IMG/VR virus record: IMGVR_UViG_3300025934_000001
Span: 45,417 to 109,416 of that record
Source: a virus
Taxonomy: Duplodnaviria; Caudoviricetes
DNA: 64,000 bases
Direction: 5' to 3' (one strand)
The stretch's first letter is position 1; every line of letters starts with the position of its first letter. The notes below the pieces were generated by a model that was given only the letters and a program-made list of their open reading frames with translations, made no database searches and was not told the DNA's origin. This document shows, one piece after another, positions 25,864 through 62,763 of this stretch. Position numbers and translations under genes: made by a program.

Positions 25864-25931
25864 GTGCAGTTGAGTTCCTTGTGCCACTTTAAAGCTCCGG
25901 TAGTGGGGCCGCTCGCGCGGCCCGGTGGGGG

Positions 25932-26585
25932 TCAGATGGTCTCGACAACCTTCTTCTTCTCGCGCTCGGTCTGCAGCATCATCTCCTGCTCGCAGGAACC
26001 GCAGACCGGCCAGCCGTGCTCCTCGATCTTCTTCGCCGTCATGTAGCTGACGTTGCCGCAGCCGCACTCCAGCTTGTGCAGGCCGTGGCTGGCATTGCGC
26101 TTCTTCGCCACCAGCGCCACCTTGCCGTGCGGGTAGGCGCCAAGCTTGGCGAGGATCGCCGCCATCAGGGCGTGAGCGTCGGCGCGCTCGACCTTGGAGT
26201 GCTTGCCGCCCGTGTAGCCGACGGTCTTGCTGGCCTTGGTGAAGGCGGCGCCGTGACCGGACTTGCAGTCATCGACGGCGTGCAGCAGTTCATGCCCGAG
26301 CACGTCCAGCACTTCCAGCGGCTGGTCGAGCACCGGGGAGATCATCACCTCGTTGACGCCCGCGGCGCTGCGCGCACGGGGCCAGCACTCGCCGATGCGG
26401 CGCCGGGGCGAGCCGCCGCCGGGGAAGCCGCAGGCCATCTTGACGTCGGCCGGGACCACCACGCCGAGCTTGAGCCACGCCGCGCGGATGATGATGGTCG
26501 CCTGCGTCAGCCACTGCTCGCGGTGGAGCACCAGCTTCGGGTCGATCATGCCGCACAGGATTGCTTGCTTTTTCATTTGGGTCAC
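25932..26585 (-). CDS. SprT-like zinc metalloprotease with C-terminal Zn ribbon
   Basis: 'RIGECW', HELLH..., 'GHG..F', C.CG...CGSC. Confidence 0.75.
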   Translation of the reverse strand: MTQMKKQAILCGMIDPKLVLHREQWLTQATIIIRAAWLKLGVVVPADVKMACGFPGGGSPRRRIGECWPRARSAAGVNEVMISPVLDQPLEVLDVLGHELLHAVDDCKSGHGAAFTKASKTVGYTGGKHSKVERADAHALMAAILAKLGAYPHGKVALVAKKRNASHGLHKLECGCGNVSYMTAKKIEEHGWPVCGSCEQEMMLQTEREKKKVVETI

Positions 26586-26651
26586 TTTAGGTCAGTTTAG
26601 GGTAGGTGCAGGCGCCGGGTGTAATGTAGCAGGCGCCTGTACCTTTAGTAA

Positions 26652-26667
26652 AGCGAGAAGCGTGCCA
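26652..26667 (-). promoter_or_regulatory. sigma54-type promoter
   Basis: TGGCACGCTTCTCGCT (GG-N10-GC). Confidence 0.75.
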
Positions 26668-26672
26668 ACGCT

Positions 26673-26897
26673 TTAAAGGCGTTGGCTACAATCGGCAGCA
26701 TCGGCCGCCGCATCGTCAGCTTCAGCCCATGAGGGGCCGTAGTCGGCGTCCTCAAAGGAGTAGCTACAGGGCAGGGGCGGCAGTGGGAGCGGCTGCGGGC
26801 GCTGCGAGTGGAGCAGCAGGATCACGATGATGGTCAGCAGCCCCACCACGGGGCCGCCGAGCCAGAACGCCACGGCGATGCAGAGGGCGTCGATCAT
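26673..26897 (-). CDS. Small membrane protein
   Basis: ATGA coupling; hydrophobic N-terminus. Confidence 0.5.
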   Translation of the reverse strand: MIDALCIAVAFWLGGPVVGLLTIIVILLLHSQRPQPLPLPPLPCSYSFEDADYGPSWAEADDAAADAADCSQRL

Positions 26898-27556
26898 TGA
26901 AATTTCCCGGCGCATACGGGGCCAATCCCCGCCTCGATCGAGGCCGGGTCCGTCAGGTCACGGCCGCAGGAGCAGCAGCGGCCCGAGAGCTTGCCGTGCT
27001 TCACGGCGGCCGCCAGCGGGTCCAGTTCGAACTCGGCCAGCAGGGCCACGATGGCATCCTTGTCGGCGCCGGCCTTGCCGTTCCAGACGAAGGCCTGCGC
27101 GTTGTCGAGCTTGCCGACGAGGCGATCGCTCCACACCAGCCAGCACATGCTGTCCTGATTCTTGCGGGAGATCTTGAGCGAGCCCGCGTGCAGGGTGGCG
27201 TGCTTCTGCATCACCTCGAACAGCTTCGGCACCGGGGTGCCGGCGGCGTAGGCGGGCTTCGCCGGGGCCGCCGGGGTGCCCGGCAGGGTTACCTGCGGCA
27301 GCGGCTTGCGCGGCAGCGACCACTCCACCAGCTTGCCGGCGAAGTCGCGCTGCTTGGCGCTGGCGTAGCCGCCGTTGTCCACCCGGCCAGCGATGTCGCG
27401 GCAGATGGCGCCCTTGCCCATGGCGAAGGCGTCGCGGCGGGCGTCGAAGCGCACCGCGGCGTCGCGCAGTTCGACCGCGCTCGGGCGCTCGCCGGCAACG
27501 ACGGCCAGCGCGGGGGTGATCGAGGGGGCGACGGCGACGGCGTTTTTCCAGTCCAT
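26894..27556 (-). CDS. DUF6011-like Zn-finger protein
   Basis: C-terminal 'GRCCSCGRDLTDPASIEAGIGPVC'; SD GAAGGA. Confidence 0.75.
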   Translation of the reverse strand: MDWKNAVAVAPSITPALAVVAGERPSAVELRDAAVRFDARRDAFAMGKGAICRDIAGRVDNGGYASAKQRDFAGKLVEWSLPRKPLPQVTLPGTPAAPAKPAYAAGTPVPKLFEVMQKHATLHAGSLKISRKNQDSMCWLVWSDRLVGKLDNAQAFVWNGKAGADKDAIVALLAEFELDPLAAAVKHGKLSGRCCSCGRDLTDPASIEAGIGPVCAGKFQ

Positions 27557-27603
27557 GTTCATTCCTTCGTAGTGGGGGTGTAGGGGATGCCTACAACTAC
27601 TAA

Positions 27604-27619
27604 AGCACTTACCGTGCCA
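27604..27619 (-). promoter_or_regulatory. sigma54-type promoter
   Basis: TGGCACGGTAAGTGCT. Confidence 0.75.
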
Positions 27620-27833
27620 GCTTCTGCAGGTACTGCCACTCGCCCACCCACTCCGCGACGGTGAACGTCGTGAGGTGGTTGACGTAGACCGACGACGCCG
27701 GCCACGTGAGGGCGCCGCCGCCGACGAAGTAGAAGTAGCCATTGCCGCGGACTAGCTCCTGCTCGCCGCCCGCGGCCTTGATGGCCGCGTTGACGTTGTT
27801 CAGGGTGACGCGGGGGAGGGTGATCTTTGCCAT
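27609..27833 (-). CDS. Hypothetical early protein
   Basis: GGAG SD; typical codons. Confidence 0.6.
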   Translation of the reverse strand: MAKITLPRVTLNNVNAAIKAAGGEQELVRGNGYFYFVGGGALTWPASSVYVNHLTTFTVAEWVGEWQYLQKLAR

Positions 27834-27899
27834 GCTCGATGCTCCAGTTGAAAGGCAGTTGTTGGAGCCTGCTTTAAAGGCAGGCTCGGGCAACGGTCT

Positions 27900-28330: not shown

Positions 28331-28332
28331 AC

Positions 28333-29332: not shown

Positions 29333-29338
29333 GCCATT

Positions 29339-30135: not shown

Positions 30136-30259
30136 TTCTGCCCGAGCGGGCGCCTACAGTGTAGGGGCTGGCTTTAAAGCCCCCCGCTTGCGCCACCCGG
30201 CCGGCGGGGTTTACCATCCGCCCTCACCTATTCACTGACCTAGATTGGAGTACCGGAAA

Positions 30260-31396
30260 ATGGCACTACATGCCGCATTCTCGCCCTCGGCGTCCAGCCG
30301 CTGGATCGCCTGCCCGGCATCGCATCTGCGCGCCGCGGCCCTCCCGCCTGCCCCTAGCTCCAGCTCCAGCTACGCCGAGCGCGGCACCCTGCTGCACGAA
30401 CTGGCTGCCTATGCCCTCGTCAACACACTGGCGACGATGGATGTCTACGCGGCGGCGCTGCCGGGCGTGAAGCTGGAGCCCGACGAGCGCGCGGCCATCG
30501 CCACCTATGTCAAGTTCTGCCGCGATTTGCGCAAGGGTGCGACGGCGTGGGGGATCGAGACGCGCGTGGCCTACGATGCCGAACTGTTCGGCACCATCGA
30601 CTTCTGGGCCGTCAAGCACGGCACCCTGCACGTGGTGGACCTGAAGGGCGGCCGCGGCATCAAGGTGGACGTCATCGACAACACCCAGTTGCTGATTTAC
30701 GCGATCATGCTGTCCAACCAGATTGCGATCGATAGGAAATCGGTCGCGGCCACCATCGACCACGTGGAACTGCACATCGTGCAGCCGCTGTTCGAAGGCG
30801 ATGCGCCGATCCGTGGCGCCACCTACACCATGGCGCAGCTTGGCCTCTGGCGCGGCAAGATCTTCGATGCCATGGTGGCCGCCAAGAATCCCGCCGCCGC
30901 CTTCAACCCCGGCGAGCACTGCCGCTTCTGCCCAGTGAAGCCGGCCTGCCCGGCCCTGCTCGGGCTGGTGCAGCAGATGCCGTCGCCGCCGGTCTTCAAC
31001 GGCCTCTCGGTGGAGAAGATCTCCGAGTGGCTGGCGAAGGCCGACACCATCGAGATGTGGATCGCGGCCCTGCGCGAGCATGCCCACGGCACCATCAACT
31101 GCGGCACACCCATCCCCGGCTGGCGCCTGCAGGACAAGCGCGCGACGCGCAAGTGGACCGACGAGCGCGCCGTGCAATCCGAAGCCAAGGGCGCCGGCAT
31201 CGTCGTCACCGCCCGCAAGCTCATGTCGCCGACGCAGGTCGAGAAGAAGTTCCGCGGCATCCCGGTGGTGCTGCAGCCGTTCGTGGATCAAACGCCCTCG
31301 GGCCAGAATCTGGTGCGCGACGAGTCCTACGTCGCCACCGATACCGAGCAGCCCGCGCTGGACAAGGCGCTGCTCAACCTGCAGTACCGTGTGTAA
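30260..31396 (+). CDS. DUF2800/Cas4-like PD-(D/E)xK exonuclease
   Basis: 'HAAFSPSASSRWIACP', 'GT.LH', 'FGTID..VVDLK.G', 'QL.IYA', 'HCRFCP...CP'. Confidence 0.85.
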   Translation: MALHAAFSPSASSRWIACPASHLRAAALPPAPSSSSSYAERGTLLHELAAYALVNTLATMDVYAAALPGVKLEPDERAAIATYVKFCRDLRKGATAWGIETRVAYDAELFGTIDFWAVKHGTLHVVDLKGGRGIKVDVIDNTQLLIYAIMLSNQIAIDRKSVAATIDHVELHIVQPLFEGDAPIRGATYTMAQLGLWRGKIFDAMVAAKNPAAAFNPGEHCRFCPVKPACPALLGLVQQMPSPPVFNGLSVEKISEWLAKADTIEMWIAALREHAHGTINCGTPIPGWRLQDKRATRKWTDERAVQSEAKGAGIVVTARKLMSPTQVEKKFRGIPVVLQPFVDQTPSGQNLVRDESYVATDTEQPALDKALLNLQYRV

Positions 31397-31432
31397 CCTG
31401 ACCTAACCTAGACTTTAAAGGAGACACCTACC

Positions 31433-32110
31433 ATGAGTGCATTAGTACCGTTTGGCGGCAATGGTGCCGTGGCTGACCCGACCAAGCTCGCGGCCGCGCT
31501 GCAGAACGTTTCGCGGCAGGCTGCCCCGCAGGGCATGTTCCTGCGCATGGGCAAGGATGGCGTGTGGGTCATCGGGATCGAGGCCGAGCCCGTGGCCGAG
31601 GGCGCCGAGTTCGCCATCAACCCGGCCGGCTTCGGCCATGGCTGGATTGCGTGGGGCAAGTCCGAGCGCCTCGGCGAGTCCTTCGTGCCGCTGACCGATC
31701 CGCTGCCGGCGACGCCGGCCACGCCCGAGGGCGCGGTGCGCGGCTGGGAGCAGCAGTTCGGCATGCATCTGCGCGAAGTCGGCACGGGTGCGGACCTGAT
31801 CTTCCGCACCAGCAGCGTTGGCGGCAAGCGCGCGATCGGCGCGCTGGCGAAGGAAGTCGGTGCCCGCATGGCCGAGGGCGACGCGCGCAGCGTGGCGATC
31901 GTCACCCTCGGTGCCGACTCCTACAAGCACAAGGAGTACGGCAAGATCTACGTGCCCGAGTTCGCCATCGAGCGGTGGGTCACGCCGGCCGACATCACGG
32001 CCGACGTGCAGCCCGTGAAGGGCAAGGGAACGCCTACACCGCCGCCTACGGGCATCAAGAAGGCGGCCAAAGCCAAGGGCAAGCCGGCCACCAAACCGGC
32101 GCGCCGTTAA
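31433..32110 (+). CDS. Putative ssDNA-binding protein
   Basis: Lies between the nuclease and the polymerase; 'DSYKHKEYGKIYVPEF..ERW'. Confidence 0.6.
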   Translation: MSALVPFGGNGAVADPTKLAAALQNVSRQAAPQGMFLRMGKDGVWVIGIEAEPVAEGAEFAINPAGFGHGWIAWGKSERLGESFVPLTDPLPATPATPEGAVRGWEQQFGMHLREVGTGADLIFRTSSVGGKRAIGALAKEVGARMAEGDARSVAIVTLGADSYKHKEYGKIYVPEFAIERWVTPADITADVQPVKGKGTPTPPPTGIKKAAKAKGKPATKPARR

Positions 32111-32812: not shown

Positions 32813-34894
32813 ATGAAAGGCAGCACCGTGAAGAAGCATTTCTGGATCGACATCGAGACCCGCTCCCGCACCGACCTCGTCAAGCATGGCGTCTACCGCT
32901 ACGCCGCTGACCCCTCCACCGAAGTCCTGATCATCTGCTACGCGCTCGGCCACGGCCCCATCAAGACATGGGTGCGCGGCGCCGCCATGCCCGCGGACCT
33001 GATGAGCGTGCTGGCGAAGCCCGCCCCGCACGTGTACCTGACGGCGCACAACGCCGGCTTCGAGCGCCACGTGCTCACGCGCCTGTTCCCGGCCGTGCGT
33101 GATCCGCGCCGCTGGTACTGCACGGCCACGCAGGCCCGCGCCGTGGCGCTGGCCGGCTCGCTGGAGTCAGCGAGTCACATGCTGGGCACCCATGTGCGCA
33201 AGGATCGGCGCGGCGGCGAGTTGATCCGCCTGCTGTCGATGCCGCAGGCCGATGGCAGCTTCCTTGAGGATGCCGGCCTGATGGCCGAGTTCGCGCGCTA
33301 CTGCGCGCAGGACGTCGAGGTGATGCGCGCCATGTCCACCAACATGCCACCGCTCACCGAGGAGGCGCTGGCACTGTACGTGGCGAACGAAACCGTGAAC
33401 GATCGCGGCCTGCCGATCGACGTCGATCTGTGCGCGGCCGCGACCACGTACGCCGAGCAGGCCGCGGACGAGGCGGCACTGCGCATCCGCGCCGTGACCC
33501 GTGATGCGATCAACAGCGCCCGCTCGGTCAAGCTGGCGCCATGGATTCACGCTCGCCTCGCGCAGCAGCACCAGCACCTGATGCACGTGACGCGCACCAA
33601 AGTAGCGGACGTACAACTGCATGGCGCTGCCGGCGGGGGTGGTATGCGCGCGGGCGACGCGCGGGGCGCCGCCCATAACCTTGCACGGGCCGCTGGCGCC
33701 ACCTCGCAGCAAGGCCTGTCGCTCGACTCGGGCGTACGCGCGGCCCTGCTGGAAGCGATCGACCTCTACCCTGATGACTTCACGGCCGAGGTGATCGAGG
33801 CCATCGCGGCCGCGGAGGATGCGTCGATGGCCTCGGTGTCCAAGTTCGCCACCATGCTCGATCGCGTCAGTGCCGACGGGCGCCTGCGGGGTGCCTTCGT
33901 GATGAACGGCGCCAGCCAGACCGGACGCTTCTCCTCGACCGGCGCGCAACTGCACAACTTCCCGCGTGCGGTGGCGGAAGATCCGGACGCACTGCGGGCC
34001 ACCATCCTCAGGGGCGGCGACTTGGGCGACAGCGTGCTCAAGGCTTTAAAGTCCATGCTGCGGCCGGCGGTGCGTTCGCCCAAGGGACTGATCGTGCGGG
34101 CGGATTGGAACGCCGTCGAGGCGCGCGGCCTGCCGTGGCTGGCAGGGCCGAGCGCCACCGACTACCTTGCCATGTGGGCCGACGAGGCGCGTGATCCGTA
34201 CATGGAGCAGGCACTGCTGGCGGGGCTCACGCTGCGGCAGGGCGGCAAGGTGGTGGTGCTGTCGCTGGGCTACGGCGGCGGCCCCAATGCACTCGGCCGC
34301 ATGAGCGGCACCTACGGGGTGCAGATCGCCGACAAGCAGCAGGTAGTGTGGAACTGGCGCAATGCCAATGCATGGGCGCCGGCATGGTGGGCCGAGCTTG
34401 AAGCGGCTGCCTTCAGTGCCCTGCGCAAGCGTGACTTGGTGTGGCAGGGGGCGCAGCGCATCAGCTTCGCCGCAGATGCGTTCGGGCTTGCCATGCTGCT
34501 GCCATCCGGTCGCGTGCTCCGCTATCCCGATGCCAAGTTCGAATGGCAGGGCGAGCAGTCGCGCATCACCTACCAGAAGGCGGCATGGAAGCCCAAGGCC
34601 AACGTCAAGGAATGGCCGCGGGCCACCATGTGGCACGGCACCCTCGCGGAGAACGCGACGCAGGCCATGTGCGGGGATCTGCTGCGGCATGCATTGATCG
34701 GCGCGGTGCAGGACGGACTCCCGATCATCGGCCATGTGCATGATGAGTTGATCGCGGAAGCGCCGAACACCAAGGCCGCCACGGTGCGGGATCTTGCACG
34801 CGCGCTGCAGCAGCGTATGCTCGACTTACCCGTATGGGCGGCTGGCTTGCCGCTCGCTGTCGAGACTGACAGCGCCGCCTACTATCGCAAGTGA
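32813..34894 (+). CDS. DNA polymerase, family A (3'-5' exonuclease + polymerase)
   Basis: DIETRS, AHNAGFE, YC.QDV, TGRFSS..QLHN.PR, AD.NAVEAR, K.VVLSLGYG, HVHDEL. Confidence 0.9.
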   Translation: MKGSTVKKHFWIDIETRSRTDLVKHGVYRYAADPSTEVLIICYALGHGPIKTWVRGAAMPADLMSVLAKPAPHVYLTAHNAGFERHVLTRLFPAVRDPRRWYCTATQARAVALAGSLESASHMLGTHVRKDRRGGELIRLLSMPQADGSFLEDAGLMAEFARYCAQDVEVMRAMSTNMPPLTEEALALYVANETVNDRGLPIDVDLCAAATTYAEQAADEAALRIRAVTRDAINSARSVKLAPWIHARLAQQHQHLMHVTRTKVADVQLHGAAGGGGMRAGDARGAAHNLARAAGATSQQGLSLDSGVRAALLEAIDLYPDDFTAEVIEAIAAAEDASMASVSKFATMLDRVSADGRLRGAFVMNGASQTGRFSSTGAQLHNFPRAVAEDPDALRATILRGGDLGDSVLKALKSMLRPAVRSPKGLIVRADWNAVEARGLPWLAGPSATDYLAMWADEARDPYMEQALLAGLTLRQGGKVVVLSLGYGGGPNALGRMSGTYGVQIADKQQVVWNWRNANAWAPAWWAELEAAAFSALRKRDLVWQGAQRISFAADAFGLAMLLPSGRVLRYPDAKFEWQGEQSRITYQKAAWKPKANVKEWPRATMWHGTLAENATQAMCGDLLRHALIGAVQDGLPIIGHVHDELIAEAPNTKAATVRDLARALQQRMLDLPVWAAGLPLAVETDSAAYYRK

Positions 34895-35022: not shown

Positions 35023-37062
35023 ATGAGTCACGAAGCGCGGACACAGAATACACCACCTACCTTCAACTACCCCCTGCGCCTGCGCAAGGCGGCCCGCTGG
35101 CTGTTGTGGCGCGACGACAAGGTGCCCTACTACGCGCATGAGCAAGGCCTGCGCCTCAAGCGTAATGGCAAGCTCGACACGGCGCATGACGTCGCCCGCT
35201 TGGTCGATCACAAGACTGCGCTCGCGACCTTCAAGGCCGATGCCGGCTACTACAGTGGGCTTGGCTTCGCCCTCGGCGCCGGCTGGTACGGCATCGATTT
35301 CGACCACGTGCGTGACCCGGCTACGGGCATGCTGCTGCCACGCTGGATTCCCGACGTGATGCAGGCCGGCAGCGATAGCGGGATGTACGCGGAGCGGTCA
35401 CCCTCGGGCACGGGCCTGCACCTGATCGGCTACTGGCCGGGCGCCGACTTCCGCAACGGCCGCCAGAACGAGCATGCCGAGGCCTATCACTCGGGCCGCT
35501 ACTTCACCATGACCGGCTGGGCCACGCCCTCCAGCAACACCTATCGCTTCCGGCCGGCGAACCCGGCACCCCTGCTGGCCCTGCTCCCGCGGCCGACGCT
35601 GCGGCTGGTGTCCGCGGACCCGCTGCCAACCCCGCCAGAACGGCCTAGGAGCGATCGGGCAGGGGGCCGGGCTACCACCACATGGCTGGCCGATCGCCAA
35701 GCGATCCTAGAGGCGCTGGCGGTGCTGTCCGCGGACTGCGGGCATGAGGCATGGCTGCATGTGGGGATGGCGATCCACCATGCCAGCAAGGGCAGCGCCG
35801 AGGGGCTGGCCCTGTGGGAGCAGTGGAGCGCCACTGCGGCCGGCGCCGTCAATGCCCGTGGCGAGCCGCGCTACGTGGTGGGCCGCACCACGACGCGCTG
35901 GGCCAGCTTCGAGCGCACCCACGCGGGCGCCGCGGCACCCGTGACCCTCGGGAGCCTGATCCACCGAGCCCGCGAGGCGCAGGCCGCACAGGCCTTTGCG
36001 CGGGCCGGGCAGGCACCGGAGCAGCCGCCCGCGGTACCCGAGCTACCACGGGTCAAGGCGCCGCCACGGGTGCTGCCGGGCAACCTGCCGGAACGCTTCA
36101 GTCGCGCCGAGTTGAAGCGCATGAGCATCCCGGCCACGCGCTGGCTGGTGGCGGATCTGATCGCGCCCGGCCTCACCCTGCTGGCCGCGCCACCCAAGAC
36201 CGGCAAGTCCTACCTTGCATTGCAGATGGCGCTGTGCGTGGCCGCGGGCAAGCCGTTCCTCGATCGCGAGACAACGGCGTCGCGCGTGTGCTACTTCGAC
36301 CTTGAGCAATGGCACGCCCTGATGCTGGAACGCGACGATCGCATCAGCAAGGCGCACGCGATCCCGGCCGAGGTGCCGCTGGACTACAGCCTGACGATGG
36401 ATGTCGGCGACGGCGCGCTCGCGGCCATGCAGCAGGAGATCGACCGCGGCACCAAGCTGATCATCGTGGACCTGTTCGCACGCATCAGGGATGAGTTGAA
36501 CGAGAACGAGAAGAAGGGCGTGTATGCGCGCGACTACGCCGCGATCGTACGCATCGCCGACTTCGCGCTGCAGCATCCCGAGGTGGCGATCGTGGTGGTG
36601 CATCACGCCAACAAGGGCAAGCATGACGAGTGGCAGGCCAAGATCAGTGGCAGCTATGGCCTCACAGGTGGATCGCATGCCAACGTGTACATGGAGCGAC
36701 CGGATCTGCGCGGCATGGATGAGGCCGACAAGGAACACGCGATGCAGTACCGCACACTGCGGGCGCAGGGCAAGCTGGTGCAGGAGCAGGAGATCGTGAT
36801 CGAGATGATGCCGGCGGGCGGTGGCTGGCAGTGCTCCAAGGCGAAACCGTGGGAACTCAGAGGCACGCTGATGCAGACGCGCCTGCTGCTGTTGCTGGCG
36901 CCGCTGTACCCGGCGTACACGCCGGCCAAGGACATCGCGGACATGGTTGGCAAGACCTTCACGGCCACGCGGCAGATGCTGATGCGGATGGCGCAGCGGG
37001 GCACGCTGGAATCCGAGGGGCAGGGCGGCGGGGGTTATCGCGTGCGGCGAGGAGACAAGTGA
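35023..37062 (+). CDS. Primase-polymerase + PriCT-2 + AAA (RepA-like) helicase
   Basis: GIDFD, ERSPSGTGLH, W..VGMAIH..W.QWS, APPKTGKS, IIVD, VVHH. Confidence 0.85.
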   Translation: MSHEARTQNTPPTFNYPLRLRKAARWLLWRDDKVPYYAHEQGLRLKRNGKLDTAHDVARLVDHKTALATFKADAGYYSGLGFALGAGWYGIDFDHVRDPATGMLLPRWIPDVMQAGSDSGMYAERSPSGTGLHLIGYWPGADFRNGRQNEHAEAYHSGRYFTMTGWATPSSNTYRFRPANPAPLLALLPRPTLRLVSADPLPTPPERPRSDRAGGRATTTWLADRQAILEALAVLSADCGHEAWLHVGMAIHHASKGSAEGLALWEQWSATAAGAVNARGEPRYVVGRTTTRWASFERTHAGAAAPVTLGSLIHRAREAQAAQAFARAGQAPEQPPAVPELPRVKAPPRVLPGNLPERFSRAELKRMSIPATRWLVADLIAPGLTLLAAPPKTGKSYLALQMALCVAAGKPFLDRETTASRVCYFDLEQWHALMLERDDRISKAHAIPAEVPLDYSLTMDVGDGALAAMQQEIDRGTKLIIVDLFARIRDELNENEKKGVYARDYAAIVRIADFALQHPEVAIVVVHHANKGKHDEWQAKISGSYGLTGGSHANVYMERPDLRGMDEADKEHAMQYRTLRAQGKLVQEQEIVIEMMPAGGGWQCSKAKPWELRGTLMQTRLLLLLAPLYPAYTPAKDIADMVGKTFTATRQMLMRMAQRGTLESEGQGGGGYRVRRGDK

Positions 37063-42784: not shown

Positions 42785-42955
42785 CTTTTACAAGCTCGCA
42801 GCACAGTAGCGCCTTCGTGCATGAACCCGGCCCCCGCGGCCGCGCCATCCTCTGCACCGGAGCGAGCGTGTCTTTAAAGGACACGGCTCCCCCACCGAAA
42901 GAGGCGACGACTTGAAGCGATTCTGCTTTTATTCGTCAACCATTCGGGAGGAACC

Positions 42956-49129: not shown

Positions 49130-49130
49130 A

Positions 49131-51799: not shown

Positions 51800-52489
51800 A
51801 TGCATAACGTGATCCAGATCTCGGGCGGCATCGACAGCATGGCAATGCTGATCTACCTGCGCGGCCTGTGGTCCGACTCGGTGGTCATGTGGGGTGACAC
51901 GGGCGCGGCGTATCCCGAGACAACGGAACTGATGGAAGACGTGCGCCGCATGGTGCCGCACTTCCTGCACGTGCAGGGTGACCAGCCGGAAGTGATCCGC
52001 ACCTATGGCTGGCCGGTGGACGTGGTGCCGGTGAGCCACACCCGCTTCGGCGAGCACATCTATGGCCCGCGGCCGATCGTGTTTCAGTCTTATCTCGACT
52101 GCTGCGGCCGTGCGCGCTTCCTGCCACTGCAGCATGCGGTGCAGCGTGTCGGTGCCAAGGTGGTGTACCGCGGCCAGCGCAACAGCGACAAGCGGCGCCC
52201 GCGCATCGAGCATGACAGCATCGATGAGTTCGGCATCACCTACAAGTTTCCGCTGCGTGATTGGTCGCGCGAGCGCGTGTTCGAGTACCTGCAGCAGAAC
52301 GCGCCCGAGCTGGTGGCGGCGTACTACAGCGAAGGCGAGTCCACCAGCCGTGACTGCTGGAGTTGCACGGCGTACCGGGACGACAACGTGGCGCGCGTCG
52401 AGCATCTGCCACCACCGCAGCGGGAACAGGTGGAAACGGTTTTAAAGCAGTGGCGCGACATCGTGCGCGCCGACATGCAAGGAGCGTGA
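51800..52489 (+). CDS. PAPS-reductase-family (PP-loop) protein
   Basis: SGGIDS, DTG.AYPET, CC, RGQR.SD, PL.DWS, DC..CTAY. Confidence 0.8.
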   Translation: MHNVIQISGGIDSMAMLIYLRGLWSDSVVMWGDTGAAYPETTELMEDVRRMVPHFLHVQGDQPEVIRTYGWPVDVVPVSHTRFGEHIYGPRPIVFQSYLDCCGRARFLPLQHAVQRVGAKVVYRGQRNSDKRRPRIEHDSIDEFGITYKFPLRDWSRERVFEYLQQNAPELVAAYYSEGESTSRDCWSCTAYRDDNVARVEHLPPPQREQVETVLKQWRDIVRADMQGA

Positions 52490-53185: not shown

Positions 53186-54589
53186 ATGTACATCGACCCG
53201 TCCGCGCTCGACCTGTTCGGCCCTGACGACGGCGTGACCGGCACCGGCTCGCCGCCGGTCCTGCCGCTCGCCTACGCCGTGCGCAAGGGCAGGGGCAAGG
53301 GCCTCGAACTGGGTGACCGCAGCATGCTGCCGCAGGCCACCGCGGCCGCGGCCAGCGTGCCCGCGGCCAGTGCTGACCAGATCCGCACCCTGCCCAACGC
53401 GACGCAGGCGGCGCGCTCACCCAACCTCGGCGGGCTCGCGGCCGGCTACGACACCCAGATCAGCGAGTACCAGAAGCAACTGCAGGGACTGAACGAAGAC
53501 CCCGACTACAGCGGGGCCGCCACGGCCGCACGCAGGCGCGGCAGCGAGGGCGTACAGGTGCTCGGCGCGGCGCTCGCCGCCGGCTTGGGGCCGAAGGACA
53601 TGCAGGGACTGCAGGGCCAGTTCGCGCAGCAGTCCGCGCACATGATGCAGCCGCAGAAGATCGAGGGCGGCGAGATCGACGTCAGCGGCAACGTCAACCT
53701 CGATCCCGGCTACAAGCGGCAGAAGCAGATCACCGACTTGCGGGCGTCGATCGAAACGCTGGAGAAGCAGAAGCTCACCGCGGTCACGGCCGAGGAGAAG
53801 ATGCGCGCCGAGGCGCTGCAGCACCAGCAGATGAATCAGTTGAAGGAACTGCAGATCATGGCGATGCGCGAGGCTGCGGCCGATCGCGCGGCCAACCAGC
53901 GCGAACTGATCGCGATGCGGCGCGAGGCCGCGGCCGGTGGCGGCAAGATGCAGGCGCACGGGGTCACCCCCGAGGGGCAGATCGTCAGCTACAGCCCGAC
54001 GCTCGGCCGCACCTTTGTCGCAGGGCCGAACGGCGACATGGTCGAGTACAAGGGACCGATGGTGTCGCAGGGCACTGCCGACAAGCAGGTGCTCGCGGCG
54101 CAGCATCTGCAGGGCTCGGAGCAGACCTTCCTCGATCTGGAAGCGCGCATGAAGGCCTTCCCCAATGCCTTCGGCGGCGCCTCGTCGCTGGCGGCGCTGA
54201 CGCCCACCATCATTCAGTCACGCATCCTCAATGCCAAGCTCACGCCCGAGGAGCAGCAGGTACGCGCGGACGTGCTGCGGCAGGCCGCGCAGGCAGCGCA
54301 TGATCTGCTCGGTGCAGCGCAGACACCGGCCGAACTCGCCACCGTTGCCAACTTCATCCCCAATGCGCAAGATCCGCCCGATCGTGTGCTGCAGAAGCTG
54401 GTGTCGTCGCGCGAGTGGCAGCAGCGGCAGTTGAAGGTTCTGGGGCCATGGGCCACGCAGGCGCGGACCATCAACGGCCCCGAGGCGCCGGCACGGCCCG
54501 CGCCGTTGGCGACGCCCAAGGTGGGCGACGTGGTGGACGGTCATCGCTTTAAAGGCGGCGACCCGAAGCAGCGATCGAGTTGGGAGTAG
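53186..54589 (+). CDS. Internal virion/ejection protein
   Basis: Helical; C-terminal 'PKVGDVVDGHRFKGGDP..W' motif typical of ejection proteins. Confidence 0.7.
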   Translation: MYIDPSALDLFGPDDGVTGTGSPPVLPLAYAVRKGRGKGLELGDRSMLPQATAAAASVPAASADQIRTLPNATQAARSPNLGGLAAGYDTQISEYQKQLQGLNEDPDYSGAATAARRRGSEGVQVLGAALAAGLGPKDMQGLQGQFAQQSAHMMQPQKIEGGEIDVSGNVNLDPGYKRQKQITDLRASIETLEKQKLTAVTAEEKMRAEALQHQQMNQLKELQIMAMREAAADRAANQRELIAMRREAAAGGGKMQAHGVTPEGQIVSYSPTLGRTFVAGPNGDMVEYKGPMVSQGTADKQVLAAQHLQGSEQTFLDLEARMKAFPNAFGGASSLAALTPTIIQSRILNAKLTPEEQQVRADVLRQAAQAAHDLLGAAQTPAELATVANFIPNAQDPPDRVLQKLVSSREWQQRQLKVLGPWATQARTINGPEAPARPAPLATPKVGDVVDGHRFKGGDPKQRSSWE

Positions 54590-54593: not shown

Positions 54594-56306
54594 GTGAACC
54601 CGTGGGAGCGTGAATGGAGTGACGGCGCGGACACCGGGCCGTGGGCGAAGGAGTGGGCCAAGGTCGCACCGCCGCCCCCGCCGCCGGATGCCACCGCGCT
54701 CGATCGCGCGCAGGCCGGCGCGGCCGGCGTCAACCGCGGTGCGCTGGTGAACCTCGCCGGCTTGCCGGTGGCAACCGCGCTCAACGCCTACGACTTGGCG
54801 AAGGCCGGCGTCGGCGGCGTGATGGGCGCCTTCGGCGCCAAGCCCGAGAACCTGCCGGAACTGACTGATCGCAGCAAGGTGGCGGGCTCGCCCGAGTGGA
54901 TCGCCAAGCAACTGGAAGAACGCGGCGCCGGGCCGGTCATCAATCCCAACCGGCCCGATGACCCGGCCTCGCGCTACCTGCACGTGGGCGGGCAGGGCGC
55001 GGCCGCCGGCATGGTGGCACCGCAGACGCTGCCGCAGGCGCTCGGCAGCGCCGCCACGGGCGCTGCCTCGATGCTGGCGAGCGAGGCGGCGGGCGACGCG
55101 GGTGCGGGCACCTCCGGTCAGGTGCTCGCGGCCTCGTTGCTGCCGGCGGCTACAACGGCCGCAGCGACGCGGGCGCAGGCCGCCATGGCGAACGCGAGGC
55201 GCACTGCGGCCCAGCGCGCGGTGGTCGATGCCAACGTGGGCGCCGCACAGGAAGCGGGCTACGTCTTCCCGCCGGCACAGGTCAACCCGTCCCTCACCAA
55301 CAAGGTCATCGGCGGCATCTCGGGCAAGGCCGCCACCGAGCAGGCGGCATCGCTGGACAACCAGCCGGTCACCAACGCGCTCGCGCGCAAGGCCTTGGGC
55401 CTGCCCGAGAACACGGCGCTGTCGGTGGAAACATTGGAAGCCGTGCGGCGGCAAGCGGGCGATGCCTACGATGCAGTCAAGAATTTCAATCTGCCGATCC
55501 GCGCCAACAACACCTATCAGCAGCGGCTCGCGGATCTGCACAGCGAGTATCTGGATCGCATCGGCGCGGGCGGCGGCGGCACCCCGGTGGAATCGCTGCG
55601 GCTGTCGCACGTGGAGGACTTGCTGCGCGACATGAACCGCAACAGCTTCTCACCGACCAGTGCGGTCGAGTTGATCAAGCGATTGCGCAGCGATGCCGAC
55701 AGCGGCTTCCGCACCGGCAACGCCGAGTCCGCGCGCTACCAGAAGCGCATTGCCAATGCACTGGAGGATCTGGTGGGCGCCAATCTCAGGGCCGCCGGGC
55801 AGCGTGATCTGCTGACCGACTTTCAGGCAGCCCGGCAGCGCATCGCGCAGAGCTACGATGTGCAGAAGGCACTCAACCAAGGCACCGGCAACATCGATGC
55901 ACCCAAGATCGCCGCGCGTCAGCGCGCTGATCGACCGTTATCCGGCGAACTGGAAACGATCGCCAATGCCGCCAACTTCGCGCCGTTGTCCACGCGCGAG
56001 TTCCGGCAGACGCCGCCCGGCATCTCCGCGCTCGACGTGGGCCTCGGCACTTTGGGAGGTGCGGGCGCGATGGCATTCGGCCCTGCGGCGTTGGCGCCCG
56101 TGGCGCTGCCGGTGGCACGCATGCTGGCGCGCAAGGCCCTGCTGTCGAAGCCGTACCAGCAGTACATGGCGAAGCCCCGCACGGGTGAGCCGAGTGTGCT
56201 GGCGCGGGCACTCGCCGAGGCCGACGCACAGCAGGGCGCGCTGGCGGCGTCCTCGCTGTCGGAAGATGAGATGCGCCGCCGCCAACCCTTCACCCAAGGA
56301 CTTTAA
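54594..56306 (+). CDS. Internal virion/ejection protein
   Basis: N-terminal 'PWE.EW', Ala-rich helical, hydrophobic segments. Confidence 0.7.
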   Translation: MNPWEREWSDGADTGPWAKEWAKVAPPPPPPDATALDRAQAGAAGVNRGALVNLAGLPVATALNAYDLAKAGVGGVMGAFGAKPENLPELTDRSKVAGSPEWIAKQLEERGAGPVINPNRPDDPASRYLHVGGQGAAAGMVAPQTLPQALGSAATGAASMLASEAAGDAGAGTSGQVLAASLLPAATTAAATRAQAAMANARRTAAQRAVVDANVGAAQEAGYVFPPAQVNPSLTNKVIGGISGKAATEQAASLDNQPVTNALARKALGLPENTALSVETLEAVRRQAGDAYDAVKNFNLPIRANNTYQQRLADLHSEYLDRIGAGGGGTPVESLRLSHVEDLLRDMNRNSFSPTSAVELIKRLRSDADSGFRTGNAESARYQKRIANALEDLVGANLRAAGQRDLLTDFQAARQRIAQSYDVQKALNQGTGNIDAPKIAARQRADRPLSGELETIANAANFAPLSTREFRQTPPGISALDVGLGTLGGAGAMAFGPAALAPVALPVARMLARKALLSKPYQQYMAKPRTGEPSVLARALAEADAQQGALAASSLSEDEMRRRQPFTQGL

Positions 56307-56310
56307 AGCC

Positions 56311-57882
56311 ATGCCACGCAACGCCGCAGGAGTCTACACATTGCCGCTGCCGCCCGTGGTGGCAGGCAACACCATCATGGCGTCGTTCGAGAACACCACC
56401 GACAGCGACATCGCCAGCGAACTGACCAACTCCCTCGACCGCAACGGCCGCGGCGGCATGCTGGCGCCCTTCAAGATATTCGACGGCACCGTGGGCGCGC
56501 CCGGCATGGCGTTCACGCAAGACCCCGACAACGGCATCTACCGCATCGGCCCTGACCATTGGGCGCTGGCCGCGGGCGGTGCCGCGATCATGGACATGAC
56601 GCCCACGCAGACCGGCATCAGCACCCCGCTGTGGCTGGGCGGGGTTTTGACGGCCACAGCCGGGATCACTCTTGCCGGCACCACCCAAGTGACCGGCAAC
56701 GTCGATATTCAAGGCAGCGTCGGCTCCATCGCGCAGGCAGCGCCCCAGCACAAGCTGTCGATCAGCAGCGCCGGCCCCAGCGATGCGGCCTACATGGCCT
56801 TCAACATCTTGGGCGCCTATGCCTCGCTGTTCGGCCTGAGCGCCGATGGCAAGTGGCGCGTCGGCGGCTGGTCCGCGGGCGCAGTGCAGTACCAGATTCT
56901 GCATGAAGGCAATTCCTTCAACTTCAACACCGCGAACACCCTAAGCACCGGGCTCAATATTTCGGCGCCAACGCTTTACGCCACCTACGATGTCGTCGCC
57001 GGGCGCAATGTGGGCATCACCGGCAACCTGACAGCGGGCTCGATCAACAGCAACAGCTACGTCACGGGCGCTGACCACTTCGCCAATCGCGCCGTCGATC
57101 AAGGCGTCTATTTCTTCGGCAGTGGCGGGGGGCGCTACCTGCAATTCGATGGTGCCTACTTTCGCTTCATGACGGGCTCGATCCTGCAGCCGGGCGCGTC
57201 CAGCTTCGGGCATCTACAAGACCCCAAGGGCGCCATCGACGTGATGGCAACCGGGCGACCGGACATGCACTTCACCATCACGGCGCAGGGCGCGAACAAC
57301 GCCTATCTCGCCATTGGCTGCATCAACGATGCCTACACCGCATGGCAGAACCTCGCCTTTCAGGGCGGCGGCAGCTTCCATCCGGCCTATGACGGCGCGC
57401 AGGCATTGGGCAATCTGGCGGAACGCTGGAACGCCGTGTACGCGCAGAACGGCGCCATCAACACCAGCGATGCGCGGCTGAAAAAGGACATCGTGGATTC
57501 GCCGCTGGGCCTGTCGTTCATCGAGACTCTGCGCCCGGTGCAATACAAGTGGATCGCCGAGCGCACCATCGTCACCCCGGTGCAGACCGGCACCAAGCCG
57601 GTGCCCGAAACCGTGGACATCGACGGCAACGTGACGCCTGCGCACGATGAGCCGGTGATGGGCAACACGGTGACTCCAGTGCCCGGCGTGCGCCCGCACT
57701 GGGGGCTGATCGCGCAGGAAGTGCGGGGCGCGCTGGCGACAGCAGGCTTCGCCGACACCGGCATCGTGGCCCTGAGCGAAACCGAGGATGTGGCCGTGGG
57801 CCTCAACTACTCCGAGTTCATCGCGCCGCTGGTGGCCGCGGTGCAGGAGCTATCCACGCGCGTGAAGGCGCTGGAGGTTTAA
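56311..57882 (+). CDS. Tail fibre with C-terminal S74 intramolecular chaperone
   Basis: 'MPRN..G.Y.LP..V..G' anchor; SDARLKKDI..LRPV..GLIAQEV..Y..I.PLV.AVQEL. Confidence 0.85.
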   Translation: MPRNAAGVYTLPLPPVVAGNTIMASFENTTDSDIASELTNSLDRNGRGGMLAPFKIFDGTVGAPGMAFTQDPDNGIYRIGPDHWALAAGGAAIMDMTPTQTGISTPLWLGGVLTATAGITLAGTTQVTGNVDIQGSVGSIAQAAPQHKLSISSAGPSDAAYMAFNILGAYASLFGLSADGKWRVGGWSAGAVQYQILHEGNSFNFNTANTLSTGLNISAPTLYATYDVVAGRNVGITGNLTAGSINSNSYVTGADHFANRAVDQGVYFFGSGGGRYLQFDGAYFRFMTGSILQPGASSFGHLQDPKGAIDVMATGRPDMHFTITAQGANNAYLAIGCINDAYTAWQNLAFQGGGSFHPAYDGAQALGNLAERWNAVYAQNGAINTSDARLKKDIVDSPLGLSFIETLRPVQYKWIAERTIVTPVQTGTKPVPETVDIDGNVTPAHDEPVMGNTVTPVPGVRPHWGLIAQEVRGALATAGFADTGIVALSETEDVAVGLNYSEFIAPLVAAVQELSTRVKALEV

Positions 57883-57886
57883 AGCG

Positions 57887-60538: not shown

Positions 60539-60756
60539 GCTTCCCCCTTGGGCACATCGACGTAGGGCATGGCGACGTCATCCGCCGTCAGCCCTTCGAA
60601 GATGGCCTGCTCGGTTTCGCCGTAGACGATGGCGATGGCGGGCATGGGGCCGAAGGCGTCCTTCACGATCGGCTGGCCCGCCACCAGTAGCTCCACGTTG
60701 CGCCGCGACAGGCCGATGATCAGCATGCCGGCATCGGTCTTGGCGATGATCATCAC
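60535..60756 (-). CDS. Hypothetical protein, paralog of 24645-24884
   Basis: Shared motifs. Confidence 0.7.
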   Translation of the reverse strand: MMIIAKTDAGMLIIGLSRRNVELLVAGQPIVKDAFGPMPAIAIVYGETEQAIFEGLTADDVAMPYVDVPKGEA

Positions 60757-61034
60757 ACTCCCCAGAGATCCGGCCGCAGCAGCGCGGGCGAGACTTTAAA
60801 GTACTCCGCGATCTGCCGCGCCCGCGGACCCGGCAGCAGGAAGTGGCGCGGTGCAGCCTCGGCCATGCGCTCCCAGCCGTACAGCGTCTGCGCGCGGATG
60901 CCGATCGCGATGGCAAGCTGCCGCTTGCTGCGCTCACCGAGCTTGTTCTCGATGAGCCAACTGAGCGGATGCTTGTTGGTGTTGCTGCCCCCCGGCATCT
61001 TGCGGGGGAGCTTCACGGGTTTTTGCGTTTTCAT
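60753..61034 (-). CDS. Cro/YdaS-like HTH regulator
   Basis: 'RQLAIAIGIRAQTLYGW', C-terminal 'LRPDLW'. Confidence 0.75.
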   Translation of the reverse strand: MKTQKPVKLPRKMPGGSNTNKHPLSWLIENKLGERSKRQLAIAIGIRAQTLYGWERMAEAAPRHFLLPGPRARQIAEYFKVSPALLRPDLWGV

Positions 61035-62437
61035 GCTTGTCCTTTCAGGACGTTGAGGATGGCTTGCTGGGCACTCGACTTCGCCTGCAGCGCGTCGAGG
61101 ATGGCGCCGTCCACCGTGTCGCGAGCGACGATGTGGTGAATGACGACGGTCTTGGTCTGACCCTGCCGGTACACCCGGCGGTTCAGTTGGTCATACTCTT
61201 CAAGGTTCCACGTGAGGCCGAACCATGCCACGCAGTGGCCGCCGGCCTGCAGGTTCAAGCCGTGCGCCACCGACGTCGGATGCACCAGCAGCACCGGCAA
61301 CTCGCCGCGGTTCCAGCGCGCCACGACGTCATCCGCGGCCTTCGCCGACACGCCGCCGCCGAGGTACGGGATGGCGGCATCGCCGAGGCGCGCACGGATG
61401 GCTTCCACTTCGTGCAGGAACGACACCGCGACCAGCAGCGGGGTGCCCTGCTGCTCTTCCACCAGATCCGCCAGCGCATCGAGCTTCGCTGTGTGGATCG
61501 CGACGGTCGCCTGCGTGCGCTCTTCAGTCTCGGCGTAGGCCGTGCCGTTCACCAGTTGGCGCAGCTTCATCAGGCACGCGGCCGCGTTGGCCGGGGCCAT
61601 GGTGAGGCCGCCACCCGTGGCGAGGAACAGATCCTTGGCGAGCGTGTTGTACTGCGCGCGGGCCGGCGCCGGAAGCTCCACCTCGATGCGATTGAAGATC
61701 AGCTTCGGCATGGTCAGGTGATCCTCGGCCTTGAGGCGCAGGGCCATGCCGTTGACGCGGGCGTAGACGCGATCGGCCGCATCCTTCTTCGGGTGCCATT
61801 TCTGGATCACGCGGCCGCCGCCGACGTGGACGGACTCGGGCATGCAGAACTCGCGGCGGAAGCGGGTGATGAACTTGCCCAGCGCAGCGCCCTCGTCGCA
61901 GATGTAGGCCTGCGAGAACAGATCCTCGATCGACTGCGGCGTCGGGGTGCCGGTCAGGATGTAGCGGCGGGCGAACTTGCCGAGGTGCTCACGCAGTGCC
62001 TTGAAGCGCACGCTCGACGGGTTCTTGAAGCGGGTGGACTCGTCAACGACGAGCATCTCGGGGGCGCGCTCGCCGAGCAGCGACCACGTGGCGGCCTCGA
62101 ACAGCCAAGCGACATTCTCGCAGTTCACCACGTAGATGTCAGCGTCGGCCTTCAACGCCGCTTCGCGCTGCTTGGCGCTGCCGAGCACCAGCGACACCTT
62201 GAGATGGGCGAAATCGGCCCACTTGGCGACCTCGGCCGGCCACACCAGCCGGGCCGGGCGCAGGGGAGCGATCACCAGCATGCGCTGCACCGCGCCGGCT
62301 TCCTTCATCACAAGGAAGGCGCCCAGCGACATCGAAGTCTTGCCGAGGCCCGGATCAAGCAGCAGGGCGCCGTTGGAACGGCCGGCGATAAGCTGGATGC
62401 CGCTGATCTGGTACGGGTGGGGCGTGTAGGGGATCAT
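61031..62437 (-). CDS. SNF2-family helicase
   Basis: PGLGKT, VVDEST, LTGTP, HGLNLQ, Q..RR.YRQGQ. Confidence 0.9.
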   Translation of the reverse strand: MIPYTPHPYQISGIQLIAGRSNGALLLDPGLGKTSMSLGAFLVMKEAGAVQRMLVIAPLRPARLVWPAEVAKWADFAHLKVSLVLGSAKQREAALKADADIYVVNCENVAWLFEAATWSLLGERAPEMLVVDESTRFKNPSSVRFKALREHLGKFARRYILTGTPTPQSIEDLFSQAYICDEGAALGKFITRFRREFCMPESVHVGGGRVIQKWHPKKDAADRVYARVNGMALRLKAEDHLTMPKLIFNRIEVELPAPARAQYNTLAKDLFLATGGGLTMAPANAAACLMKLRQLVNGTAYAETEERTQATVAIHTAKLDALADLVEEQQGTPLLVAVSFLHEVEAIRARLGDAAIPYLGGGVSAKAADDVVARWNRGELPVLLVHPTSVAHGLNLQAGGHCVAWFGLTWNLEEYDQLNRRVYRQGQTKTVVIHHIVARDTVDGAILDALQAKSSAQQAILNVLKGQA

Positions 62438-62477
62438 GTTCTGTCTCGGGTAGTGGGGTGTAGGTAATGACTACTAA

Positions 62478-62493
62478 AGCGATTATCGTGCCA
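62478..62493 (-). promoter_or_regulatory. sigma54-type promoter
   Basis: TGGCACGATAATCGCT. Confidence 0.75.
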
Positions 62494-62707
62494 AGGAGCG
62501 GATGGTGTTCCAGCCGCGGGCCTGCCCGGCACTGCGGCGGGGCGCGACGCGCGGGCCGAGCGCGGGGTGGGCGACGATGAAGGCCGACACCGCGGCGCTG
62601 GCGTCGATCGAGGCCTGCAGGGTAACGGGCGTCGGGGTGGCGCGGGCGACATCGCGGGCGGCGGCTGCGGTGGTGATCAGGGCGTCGAGTTGGCTGCGGA
62701 GGTTCAT
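62483..62707 (-). CDS. Hypothetical protein
   Basis: Same CCGAGACAGA.CATG leader as the helicase gene. Confidence 0.55.
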   Translation of the reverse strand: MNLRSQLDALITTAAAARDVARATPTPVTLQASIDASAAVSAFIVAHPALGPRVAPRRSAGQARGWNTIRSLAR

Positions 62708-62747
62708 GGTCTGTCTCGGTTGTAAGGGGGTGCCTACAGTACTTTAA

Positions 62748-62763
62748 AGCGATTATCGTGCCA
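62748..62763 (-). promoter_or_regulatory. sigma54-type promoter
   Basis: TGGCACGATAATCGCT, identical to the site at 62478. Confidence 0.75.

Follow-up and report, generated by a model that had tools for sequence, protein, structure and literature searches.

Closest described systems

Cyanobacterial chromosomes carry the highly iterated palindrome HIP1 (GCGATCGC) or alternate highly iterated palindromes (Elhai, 2015; PMC4390886), and Cluster O mycobacteriophages carry 17-bp dyad repeats (TGTTCGG-N3-CCGAACA) whose function is unknown (PMC4351075). These appear to be the nearest known analogues of the element studied here, the 8-bp palindrome CTTTAAAG (hereafter the word), which recurs along phage B, a soil phage of 38.6 kb contained in the IMG/VR record IMGVR_UViG_3300025934_000001. 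The window that we analysed comprises 64,000 nucleotides, and coordinates refer to it unless stated otherwise. Like the word, HIP1 is an exact 8-bp palindrome far above expectation in genes and in spacers, related genomes may carry another palindrome instead, and its function is unknown. HIP1, however, is chromosomal, GC-rich (rich in guanine and cytosine) and accompanied by matching orphan methyltransferases, whereas the word is AT-rich in a phage of 67% GC, evenly spaced and tied to replication-recombination genes. Phage B presents the features of an iterated palindrome, i.e., a short exact palindrome orders of magnitude over expectation in and between genes, and Pfam and PHROGs scans of its proteins detected no DNA methyltransferase domain, hence no matching enzyme of the HIP1 type in the same genome. 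The Cluster O repeats number more than 30 dyad-symmetric copies genome-wide, about a third of them in genes, with some changes synonymous (PMC4351075). They differ from the word, which has 8 bp, abutting halves and an even distribution, by their 17-bp length, their spacer and their higher density at one genome end, and there is no sequence or gene relationship between the two. The present case goes further in three respects: the word is linked to a defined gene set, it has been written independently into unrelated genes, and its outer base pair is specific to the lineage.

In the temperate Cluster A mycobacteriophages, the immunity repressor binds stoperators, asymmetric 13-14-mers that share the orientation of transcription. 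Two dozen or more such sites are dispersed genome-wide, including in genes, and are read by one phage protein, a layout that recalls phage B (stoperators are discussed in PMC4351075). The word shows no such asymmetry, being an exact 8-bp palindrome with uninformative flanks, and the Pfam and PHROGs scans of B proteins revealed neither an integrase nor a repressor-type lysogeny module. The restriction enzymes DraI (TTTAAA), PmeI (GTTTAAAC) and SwaI (ATTTAAAT) have targets that share a core and differ in the outer pairs, and such variation is the signature of a symmetric dimer on abutting half-sites. The words CTTTAAAG, GTTTAAAC and ATTTAAAT, found in phage B and its relatives, are likewise palindromes with abutting halves that differ in the outer pair, as are targets of type II restriction-modification. 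Phages, however, avoid restriction sites, whereas the word is enriched and conserved in B, and no restriction endonuclease or methyltransferase gene for it was recognised. The Chi sites of RecBCD or AddAB are asymmetric, recognised on one strand and abundant in the host chromosome. They resemble the word as an over-represented, dispersed 8-letter sequence tied to a helicase-nuclease recombination machinery; the word differs in being palindromic and nearly absent from the two high-GC bacteria tested. ParB-parS and KorB arrays consist of 13-16 bp palindromes, compared with 8 bp in B, and no ParB or KorB domain was detected by Pfam and PHROGs in B proteins. The localised nicks of T5 and LUZ24 follow an asymmetric one-strand consensus, in contrast to the symmetric word. 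The suggestion that the system is undescribed agrees with our literature searches: full-text queries for the word returned only unrelated primers and coronavirus slippery sites, and queries for over-represented, evenly distributed phage palindromes gave nothing pertinent.

An exact and all-or-none word

The window contains 21 exact copies of CTTTAAAG, whereas dinucleotide-preserving shuffles predict 0.05 and reach at most 1, corresponding to an enrichment of about 400-fold in B. TTTAAA is present 23 times, exclusively within 25887-62749; it is followed by G in all cases and preceded by C in 21 of them, the two others belonging to the one-off variants TTTTAAAG (52440) and GTTTAAAG (57877). The word is all-or-none, since a search allowing one mismatch adds just 3 words (24 matches in all, about 3 expected). 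The original prediction, which had listed these 21 copies and two variants, agrees with our data: its estimates of about 67% GC and about 0.1 expected copy compare well with the GC content of the window (0.64-0.71 throughout) and with the shuffles, and the absence of the word from the first 25.3 kb extends to the core, as there is no TTTAAA in positions 1-25308 nor anywhere in the first 70.7 kb of the record, which correspond to a second phage (phage A, see below). An equal density in that segment had been named as one observation that would speak against the proposal; phage A has zero copies.

The claim that in-gene copies impose rare codons or supply stop codons also holds. On gene calls made with our own simple rule based on GC at third codon positions (GC3), the 23 sites (21 exact copies and two variants) divide into 6 intergenic sites, 4 sites providing a TAA stop, 1 site separating a GGAG ribosome-binding site from a GTG start, and in-gene sites read either as xCT-TTA-AAG (Leu-Lys, 6 sites) or as xxC-TTT-AAA-G (Phe-Lys, 6 sites). 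All three frames and both coding strands are used, indicating that the signal is in DNA and is not a protein motif. The sites, given without strand, are the following (G001 to G003 are relatives of B described below):

25887-25894, CTTTAAAG between a GGAG ribosome-binding site and GTG, its last G being the first base of the start codon; likewise in G001 and G002
26671-26678, CTTTAAAG giving the TAA stop of 26673-26915(-), within a longer inverted repeat; kept in G001 and G002
27872-27879, CTTTAAAG, intergenic, at the apex of an inverted repeat of 7-8 bp
30172-30179, CTTTAAAG, intergenic, upstream of the exonuclease gene
31413-31420, CTTTAAAG, intergenic, overlapping the AAGGAG ribosome-binding site of 31433-32110; kept in G001
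34044-34051, CTTTAAAG in the DNA polymerase gene, GCT TTA AAG; kept in G001 and G002
37702-37709, CTTTAAAG, intergenic, upstream of the terminase large subunit gene
37870-37877, CTTTAAAG at the 5′ end of the terminase gene, ACT TTA AAG
39094-39101, CTTTAAAG in the terminase gene, GCT TTA AAG
40253-40260, CTTTAAAG in the portal gene, GCT TTA AAG; the same codons are GCG CTC AAG in G003
40929-40936, CTTTAAAG in the portal gene, GGC TTT AAA GCC; GGC TTC AAG GGC in G003
42439-42446, CTTTAAAG in gene 41699-42784, AGC TTT AAA GCC
42872-42879, CTTTAAAG, intergenic, upstream of the major capsid gene
45822-45829, CTTTAAAG in gene 45688-46278, CGC TTT AAA GAA; CGC TTC AAG GAC in G003
47556-47563, CTTTAAAG in gene 47489-49129, CCT TTA AAG; CCG TTG AAG in G001
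49124-49131, CTTTAAAG giving the TAA stop of 47489-49129, flanked by AAGGAG and an in-frame GTG
50311-50318, CTTTAAAG in gene 49982-50437, GGC TTT AAA GAG; in G001 and G002 the site lies about 20 nt upstream instead
52440-52447, variant TTTTAAAG in the PAPS-reductase gene, centrally placed in one of the two largest gaps
54547-54554, CTTTAAAG in gene 53186-54589, CGC TTT AAA GGC
56301-56308, CTTTAAAG giving the TAA stop of 54594-56306
57877-57884, variant GTTTAAAG giving the TAA stop of 56311-57882, inside the other largest gap
60794-60801, CTTTAAAG within the helix-turn-helix (HTH) gene, TAC TTT AAA GTC
62742-62749, CTTTAAAG, intergenic, between 62483-62707(-) and the VRR-NUC gene

Across the clade, the full 8-mer accounts for 98 of 114 distinct TTTAAA contexts, and flanking positions beyond -1/+1 carry less than 0.12 bit. 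A flanking hairpin was considered as part of the signal, a few intergenic sites being located in longer inverted repeats, and was discarded because most of the 98 distinct sites have 0-1 extra paired bases.

The arrangement GGAG-(N0-2)-CTTTAAA-GTG was encountered three times, at 25885-25894 and 49124-49133 in the window and at position 16616 of another phage, G006 (see below). In these three cases the word forms the spacer between ribosome-binding site and GTG, and the start codon begins with the last G of the word.

Selection, conservation and spacing of the sites

The copies of CTTTAAAG are selected cis-acting sites dispersed along one phage genome, as had been proposed; this conclusion follows from a codon shuffle, from the conservation of orthologous sites amid synonymous divergence, from site turnover, from even spacing and from independent gain in the structural genes of G006. 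In the shuffle, which exchanged synonymous codons while keeping proteins and codon usage, 0.048 in-gene copies are expected and at most 2 were obtained in 500 shuffles, compared with 11 observed, so that the excess survives the codon-preserving control suggested beforehand. The codons required are the rarest choices in B: TTA encodes 21 of 992 Leu (2%), TTT 33 of 355 Phe (9%) and AAA 37 of 466 Lys (8%). The B proteome offers 20 places where synonymous changes could create the word, and 11 of them carry it; most of the unused ones lie less than 800 bp from a used site. In G006, 13 of 29 such opportunities are used.

Comparison with relatives, also proposed in advance, gave a concordant picture. 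G001 (82% DNA identity) has kept 14 of 17 aligned sites although the flanks have diverged, and G002 (74% DNA identity) has kept 8-9 of 14. In G003, which has zero copies, the same residues are written with ordinary CTC/TTC-AAG codons (for instance GCG CTC AAG). The site at 50311, displaced by about 20 nt in G001 and G002, illustrates turnover. In the polymerase gene of G006, ACT TTA AAG TCG is located 1,192 nt from the start, versus 1,231 nt for the corresponding B site, as judged from distances and not from an alignment.

Sites recur about every 1.8 kb in B and every 1.7-2.5 kb across lineages. The coefficient of variation (CV) of spacing is 0.62 in B (P = 0.018); the two largest gaps each contain one of the two variants, and counting these as sites lowers the CV to 0.49 (P = 1e-4). 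It is 0.54 in G006 (P = 0.007; largest gap, P = 0.004) and 0.49 in a sister phage, G013 (P = 0.001), these three tests being performed on lineages that are related in their early genes. Spacing more even than random argues against a blind mutational or repair drive and for a function that requires coverage of the whole chromosome.

Phages purge short palindromes, an expectation voiced in the original prediction and borne out in B, which lacks AGCGCT, CAGCTG, CCCGGG, CTCGAG, GAGCTC, GGGCCC, GTCGAC and TGGCCA, each expected 10-28 times. The palindrome that B keeps therefore stands out further: eight GC-rich hexamers have been purged, yet one AT-rich palindrome is maintained at regular intervals, at a clear coding cost.

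The word follows an early gene set

The word tracks an early replication-recombination gene set of about eight genes and not the capsid genes. Among 80 retained capsid relatives of B (of 429 confirmed in IMG/VR), it is present only where capsid identity is at least 89%. G003, G004 and G005 combine the structural module of B with other replication genes and have 0-1 copies, and Stenotrophomonas phage BUCT555, which has the capsid module of B without the early set, has zero copies. Conversely, G006 (40,167 bp, complete) has no structural gene in common with B, yet carries 16 copies, and its own, unrelated structural genes hold 10 of these. The proteins common to G006 and B (41-60% identity) are the SprT-like, DUF6011, exonuclease, 225-aa, PolA, primase-helicase, HTH, SNF2 and VRR-NUC proteins. 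It is because G006 shares only this set, and because capsid relatives with other replication genes have 0-1 copies, that we link the word to the early genes. In B, these genes are the following:

25932-26585(-), SprT-like HExxH protein with a C-terminal Cys cluster (phrog_6361, motif HELLH); co-occurring set
26894-27742(-), protein with a C-terminal DUF6011 Cys motif (Pfam DUF6011); co-occurring set
30260-31396(+), DUF2800 / PD-(D/E)XK exonuclease; co-occurring set
31433-32110(+), 225-aa protein with a lysine-rich tail (phrog_9528); co-occurring set
32813-34894(+), family A DNA polymerase (PolA); co-occurring set
35023-37062(+), primase-helicase with PriCT-2 and AAA_25 domains; not in all genomes with the word
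60753-61034(-), YdaS/Cro-like HTH protein of 93 aa with weak HTH matches; candidate reader
61031-62437(-), SNF2-family helicase (Pfam SNF2-rel_dom and Helicase_C) whose stop overlaps the start of the HTH gene; co-occurring set
62802-63125(-), VRR-NUC (PD-(D/E)XK) nuclease of 107 aa (Pfam VRR_NUC); candidate reader

The name YdaS/Cro-like reflects our reading of an alignment, with no family match behind it. The 225-aa protein has no Pfam or PDB match, and profile searches of this protein and of the DUF6011 protein against solved structures returned nothing. The literature on the combination of DUF2800 and VRR-NUC consisted of genome announcements only.

Outer letters change in concert in sister lineages

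Sister genomes with the same early set (G009 to G013) were retrieved with a profile of the SNF2 protein, which is 53-60% identical between B and G006 or G009-G013. In G013, all 17 TTTAAA belong to CTTTAAAG. In other sisters the same core is framed by different letters: GTTTAAAC makes up 5 of 6 TTTAAA in G009, 7 of 7 in G010, where it is often extended to GCGTTTAAACGC, and 3 of 4 in G012, whereas G011 uses ATTTAAAT-like words. Lineages of the G009-G012 type have 4-7 sites per genome, still above a codon shuffle that keeps rare codons. At two orthologous places, CTTTAAAG in G013 corresponds to GTTTAAAC in G009. Since the outer letters change as a pair and palindromy is preserved, these comparisons point to a two-fold symmetric, i.e., dimeric, reader of duplex DNA that would contact two abutting half-sites.

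Search for the reader

The original prediction had suggested that the presence of the word be correlated with three genes of B. Every genome with the word encodes the HTH protein (60753 in B), and also the VRR-NUC nuclease. The other two candidates fail: both the PAPS reductase (PP-loop protein, 51800) and the 690-aa protein encoded at 58032 are absent from G006 with its 16 copies, and a PAPS reductase homologue (44% identical) is encoded by L102, which has zero copies. The primase-helicase is disfavoured, G013 with its 17 copies having an unrelated VapE-type protein instead. A DUF7178-like protein of 594 aa in G013 is common to G006 only, the 570-aa protein of B matching its first ~130 residues only. 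Small early proteins unique to G013 or to B belong to no Pfam family. G013 encodes only a generic S-adenosylmethionine (SAM)-methyltransferase fold, which is present in GTTTAAAC lineages as well.

Possible functions of the sites

We tentatively favour, at somewhat less than an even chance, an explanation in which CTTTAAAG is read on duplex DNA by a two-fold symmetric protein that belongs to, or works with, the early replication-recombination set and uses the sites as docking or cutting points. The reader would be dimeric, and part of or partner to the set formed by the exonuclease, PolA, SNF2 and HTH, VRR-NUC, SprT-like and DUF6011 proteins. One site per 1.7-2.5 kb would place a docking or cutting point within reach of any chromosome position, and host-like high-GC DNA is nearly devoid of the word. 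The sites might be used for loading the SNF2 motor, or for resolving or processing branched replication and recombination intermediates. A more specific version, which we consider conceivable but doubtful, is that the gene set carries its own address code: a restriction-enzyme-like dimer (for instance VRR-NUC or an SNF2-coupled HTH) would act only at NTTTAAAN words, so that the phage must plant them every ~2 kb in a GC-rich genome, and its outer-pair specificity would switch between close relatives (C/G, G/C, A/T), whole genomes being rewritten thereafter.

Several observations weigh against a reader drawn from the early set. No reader could be pinpointed among the shared proteins, none of which cleanly separates users of CTTTAAAG from users of GTTTAAAC (0-2 weak conservative positions per protein), and the recognition helix of the HTH protein (RPQSLYKWER) is identical in G013, G009 and G011 despite their different outer base pairs. 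G004 encodes SNF2 (40%) and VRR-NUC (34%) homologues but lacks the word. G013 is nested among the GTTTAAAC lineages by all proteins (in all shared proteins, 60-88% identity to G009-G012 and only 35-55% to B), yet its word is that of B and G006, both of them distant, so that convergence, transfer or a shared host factor must be invoked. No gene was found in all dense CTTTAAAG genomes yet absent from the others, which makes a host factor possible. Finally, the gene calls rest on our GC3 rule, and the density of the word in bacteria is known from two high-GC genomes only, neither a known host, which contain 3-4 copies of CTTTAAAG in 3.6-4.3 Mb, fewer than of the reversed control word. The reader could possibly be a host factor, a subtly changed shared protein (a VRR-NUC dimer or SNF2-HTH) or the product of an overlooked small gene.

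An operator or architectural array comparable to stoperators, in which the HTH or another small DNA-binding protein would bind all sites to silence, pause or compact the chromosome, would be in line with the dispersed repeats known in and between genes of Cluster A and Cluster O mycobacteriophages (PMC4351075). The HTH protein is 80-85% identical in the clade, accompanies every TTTAAA-core word and has one site inside its own gene. Nevertheless, we regard such an array as unlikely: the recognition helix of this protein does not change with the outer pair, Cro-type dimers read half-sites about 10 bp apart and not two abutting 4-bp halves, the sites are unrelated to operon starts, and the Pfam and PHROGs scans of B revealed no lysogeny module. 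We assign a comparably small chance to a HIP1-like dependence on the host, in which an orphan methyltransferase or another host protein of NTTTAAAN specificity would mark the sites, to be used by a methyl-directed process or created by biased repair. Methyltransferases of matching specificity do accompany HIP1 and the alternate palindromes of cyanobacteria (PMC4390886). The lack of a reader gene unique to CTTTAAAG phages and the use of one word by the distant B/G006 and G013 would suit a host enzyme, and the specificities of DraI, PmeI and SwaI provide precedents for outer pairs that vary around this core. However, the word follows replication genes and not tail or capsid genes, its even spacing and the unused opportunities near used sites do not fit a blind repair drive, phage A has zero copies despite a recent DNA exchange with B, no DNA methyltransferase domain was detected in B, and the two bacterial genomes examined, which are not known hosts, are nearly free of the word.

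The even coverage at 1.7-2.5 kb and the link to replication genes could also mean that the primase-helicase reads the sites in order to prime lagging-strand synthesis or load helicase, the palindrome serving both strands at the spacing of Okazaki fragments. This appears improbable, since the PriCT-2 and AAA_25 protein of B is replaced by an unrelated VapE-type protein in G013, which uses the same word in 17 copies, and the concerted change of outer letters favours a symmetric duplex reader over a single-strand template signal. A signal at the level of RNA or translation (an AU-rich cleavage site, a slippery UUUAAAG heptamer, a stop codon or a spacer before starts) is more improbable still: 11 of 23 sites are located at gene borders, 4 form TAA stops and 3 (two in B, one in G006) separate a ribosome-binding site from GTG, but the word occurs in all frames and on both coding strands, its exact palindromy is kept while the outer pair changes, a transcript signal needs no self-complementarity, and placement at gene borders is expected of positions of least cost. 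As for chance, base composition, codon bias or an assembly artefact, only the chimeric nature of the record could be cited in their support, and the shuffles and independent contigs refute them, leaving a practically negligible probability.

Returning to a reader associated with the early set, the defined list of early genes and the same core with another outer pair in sister phages make it directly testable. If the reader does belong to the SNF2/VRR-NUC/exonuclease set, which is widespread in phages and whose role is unsettled, it would show how this set recognises the DNA of its own phage.

Two phages joined in one record

The restriction of the word to one part of the record, pointed out in the original prediction, is explained by the join of two separate circular genomes. 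The record is a 109,416-bp IMG/VR entry flagged with terminal repeats, of which the window is the final 64 kb. Its 98-bp "terminal repeat" is found three times, at record positions 1, 70725 and 109319; the record is therefore chimeric and traverses two circles in a figure-8, namely phage A (70,724 bp) and phage B (38,594 bp). The corresponding features of the window, given without strand, are:

25309-63902, phage B, circular and separate from A, 38,594 bp, holding every copy of the word (based on repeat copies, collinearity with G001 and a contig of run X3)
25309-25406, 98-bp repeat, middle copy, shared by A and B and forming the assembly joint
63903-64000, 98-bp repeat, third copy, at the record end

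The relative G001 is collinear with B across the joint between the end and the start of B, and lacks a segment of ~300 bp containing the stretch shared by A and B. In an independent rhizosphere run (X3), a 5.4-kb contig runs into B at 25295 from non-A sequence. The sets of avoided hexamer palindromes differ between A and B, further supporting two genomes. Around the 98-bp repeat, the stretch common to A and B reaches 200 bp with 98.5% identity; since it is nearly identical, the two phages must have been in one cell recently.

Phage B occurs in many rhizosphere, root and soil metagenomes. The assembled contigs of the 24 runs that hold B show few differences, none of which touches any site, and the word is present at the same sites in independent samples and contigs. 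Besides the early genes, Pfam and PHROGs scans identified terminase, portal, major capsid and tail proteins and the protein with a PAPS-reductase domain. No close isolate was found by megablast of the phage collection; in capsid protein identity, Stenotrophomonas phage BUCT555 (61.5%) and Myxococcus phage Mx8 (58.8%) come nearest. Bacterial genomes scanned with the SNF2 profile for a host yielded just distant prophage-like matches and binned phage contigs.

Phage A encodes a single protein of 5,909 aa (5221-22950, +) with an Eco57I-type methylase and ResIII / Helicase_C domains, which we take to resemble virion-borne anti-restriction giants such as P1 DarB. A tRNA-Arg(GCG) gene is located just upstream, at 5021-5115(-). 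Phage A is devoid of ACGCGT, CGTACG and GCATGC and has a single TCGCGA; the hexamers that it avoids are different from those avoided by B, so that the two phages must have met different restriction systems.

Other repeated words and genes in related phages

One lineage has purged CAGCTG and another is enriched in it: genomes with the SNF2 set all have 0-1 copies, whereas a capsid relative lacking CTTTAAAG (G003, L085-L087, and L009) has 123 versus ~60 expected. The same relative contains 30 copies of GCAGCTGC, 19 of them in genes versus ~5 expected there. We considered whether every relative has an iterated word of its own and rejected the idea, as the G005 word is a tandem coding repeat, that of G004 is a local terminal cluster and those of G003 are enriched merely 2-4 fold. 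In G004 (L088/L089), about ten TTAGTTAGCACTCACTAACG-like repeats are clustered at the genome ends (17-808 and 37395-37742) and may be iterons or early promoters, and in G005 (L090) a long in-gene tandem repeat of GCCGTA units spans 7919-8279.

Two further genes of G006 (L169), at 7602-8297(-) and 18930-19352(+), encode a protein with a DnaJ domain and a small one whose match to the Acb2/Tad1 hairpin domain is weak and below the family cut-off. In BUCT555 (L216, MW291508.1), which has zero TTTAAA, a gene annotated as adenylosuccinate synthetase is located near a DNA polymerase I gene (9891-15033), with one integrase-annotated gene between them, which is the arrangement of PurZ/DpoZ phages with 2-aminoadenine DNA.

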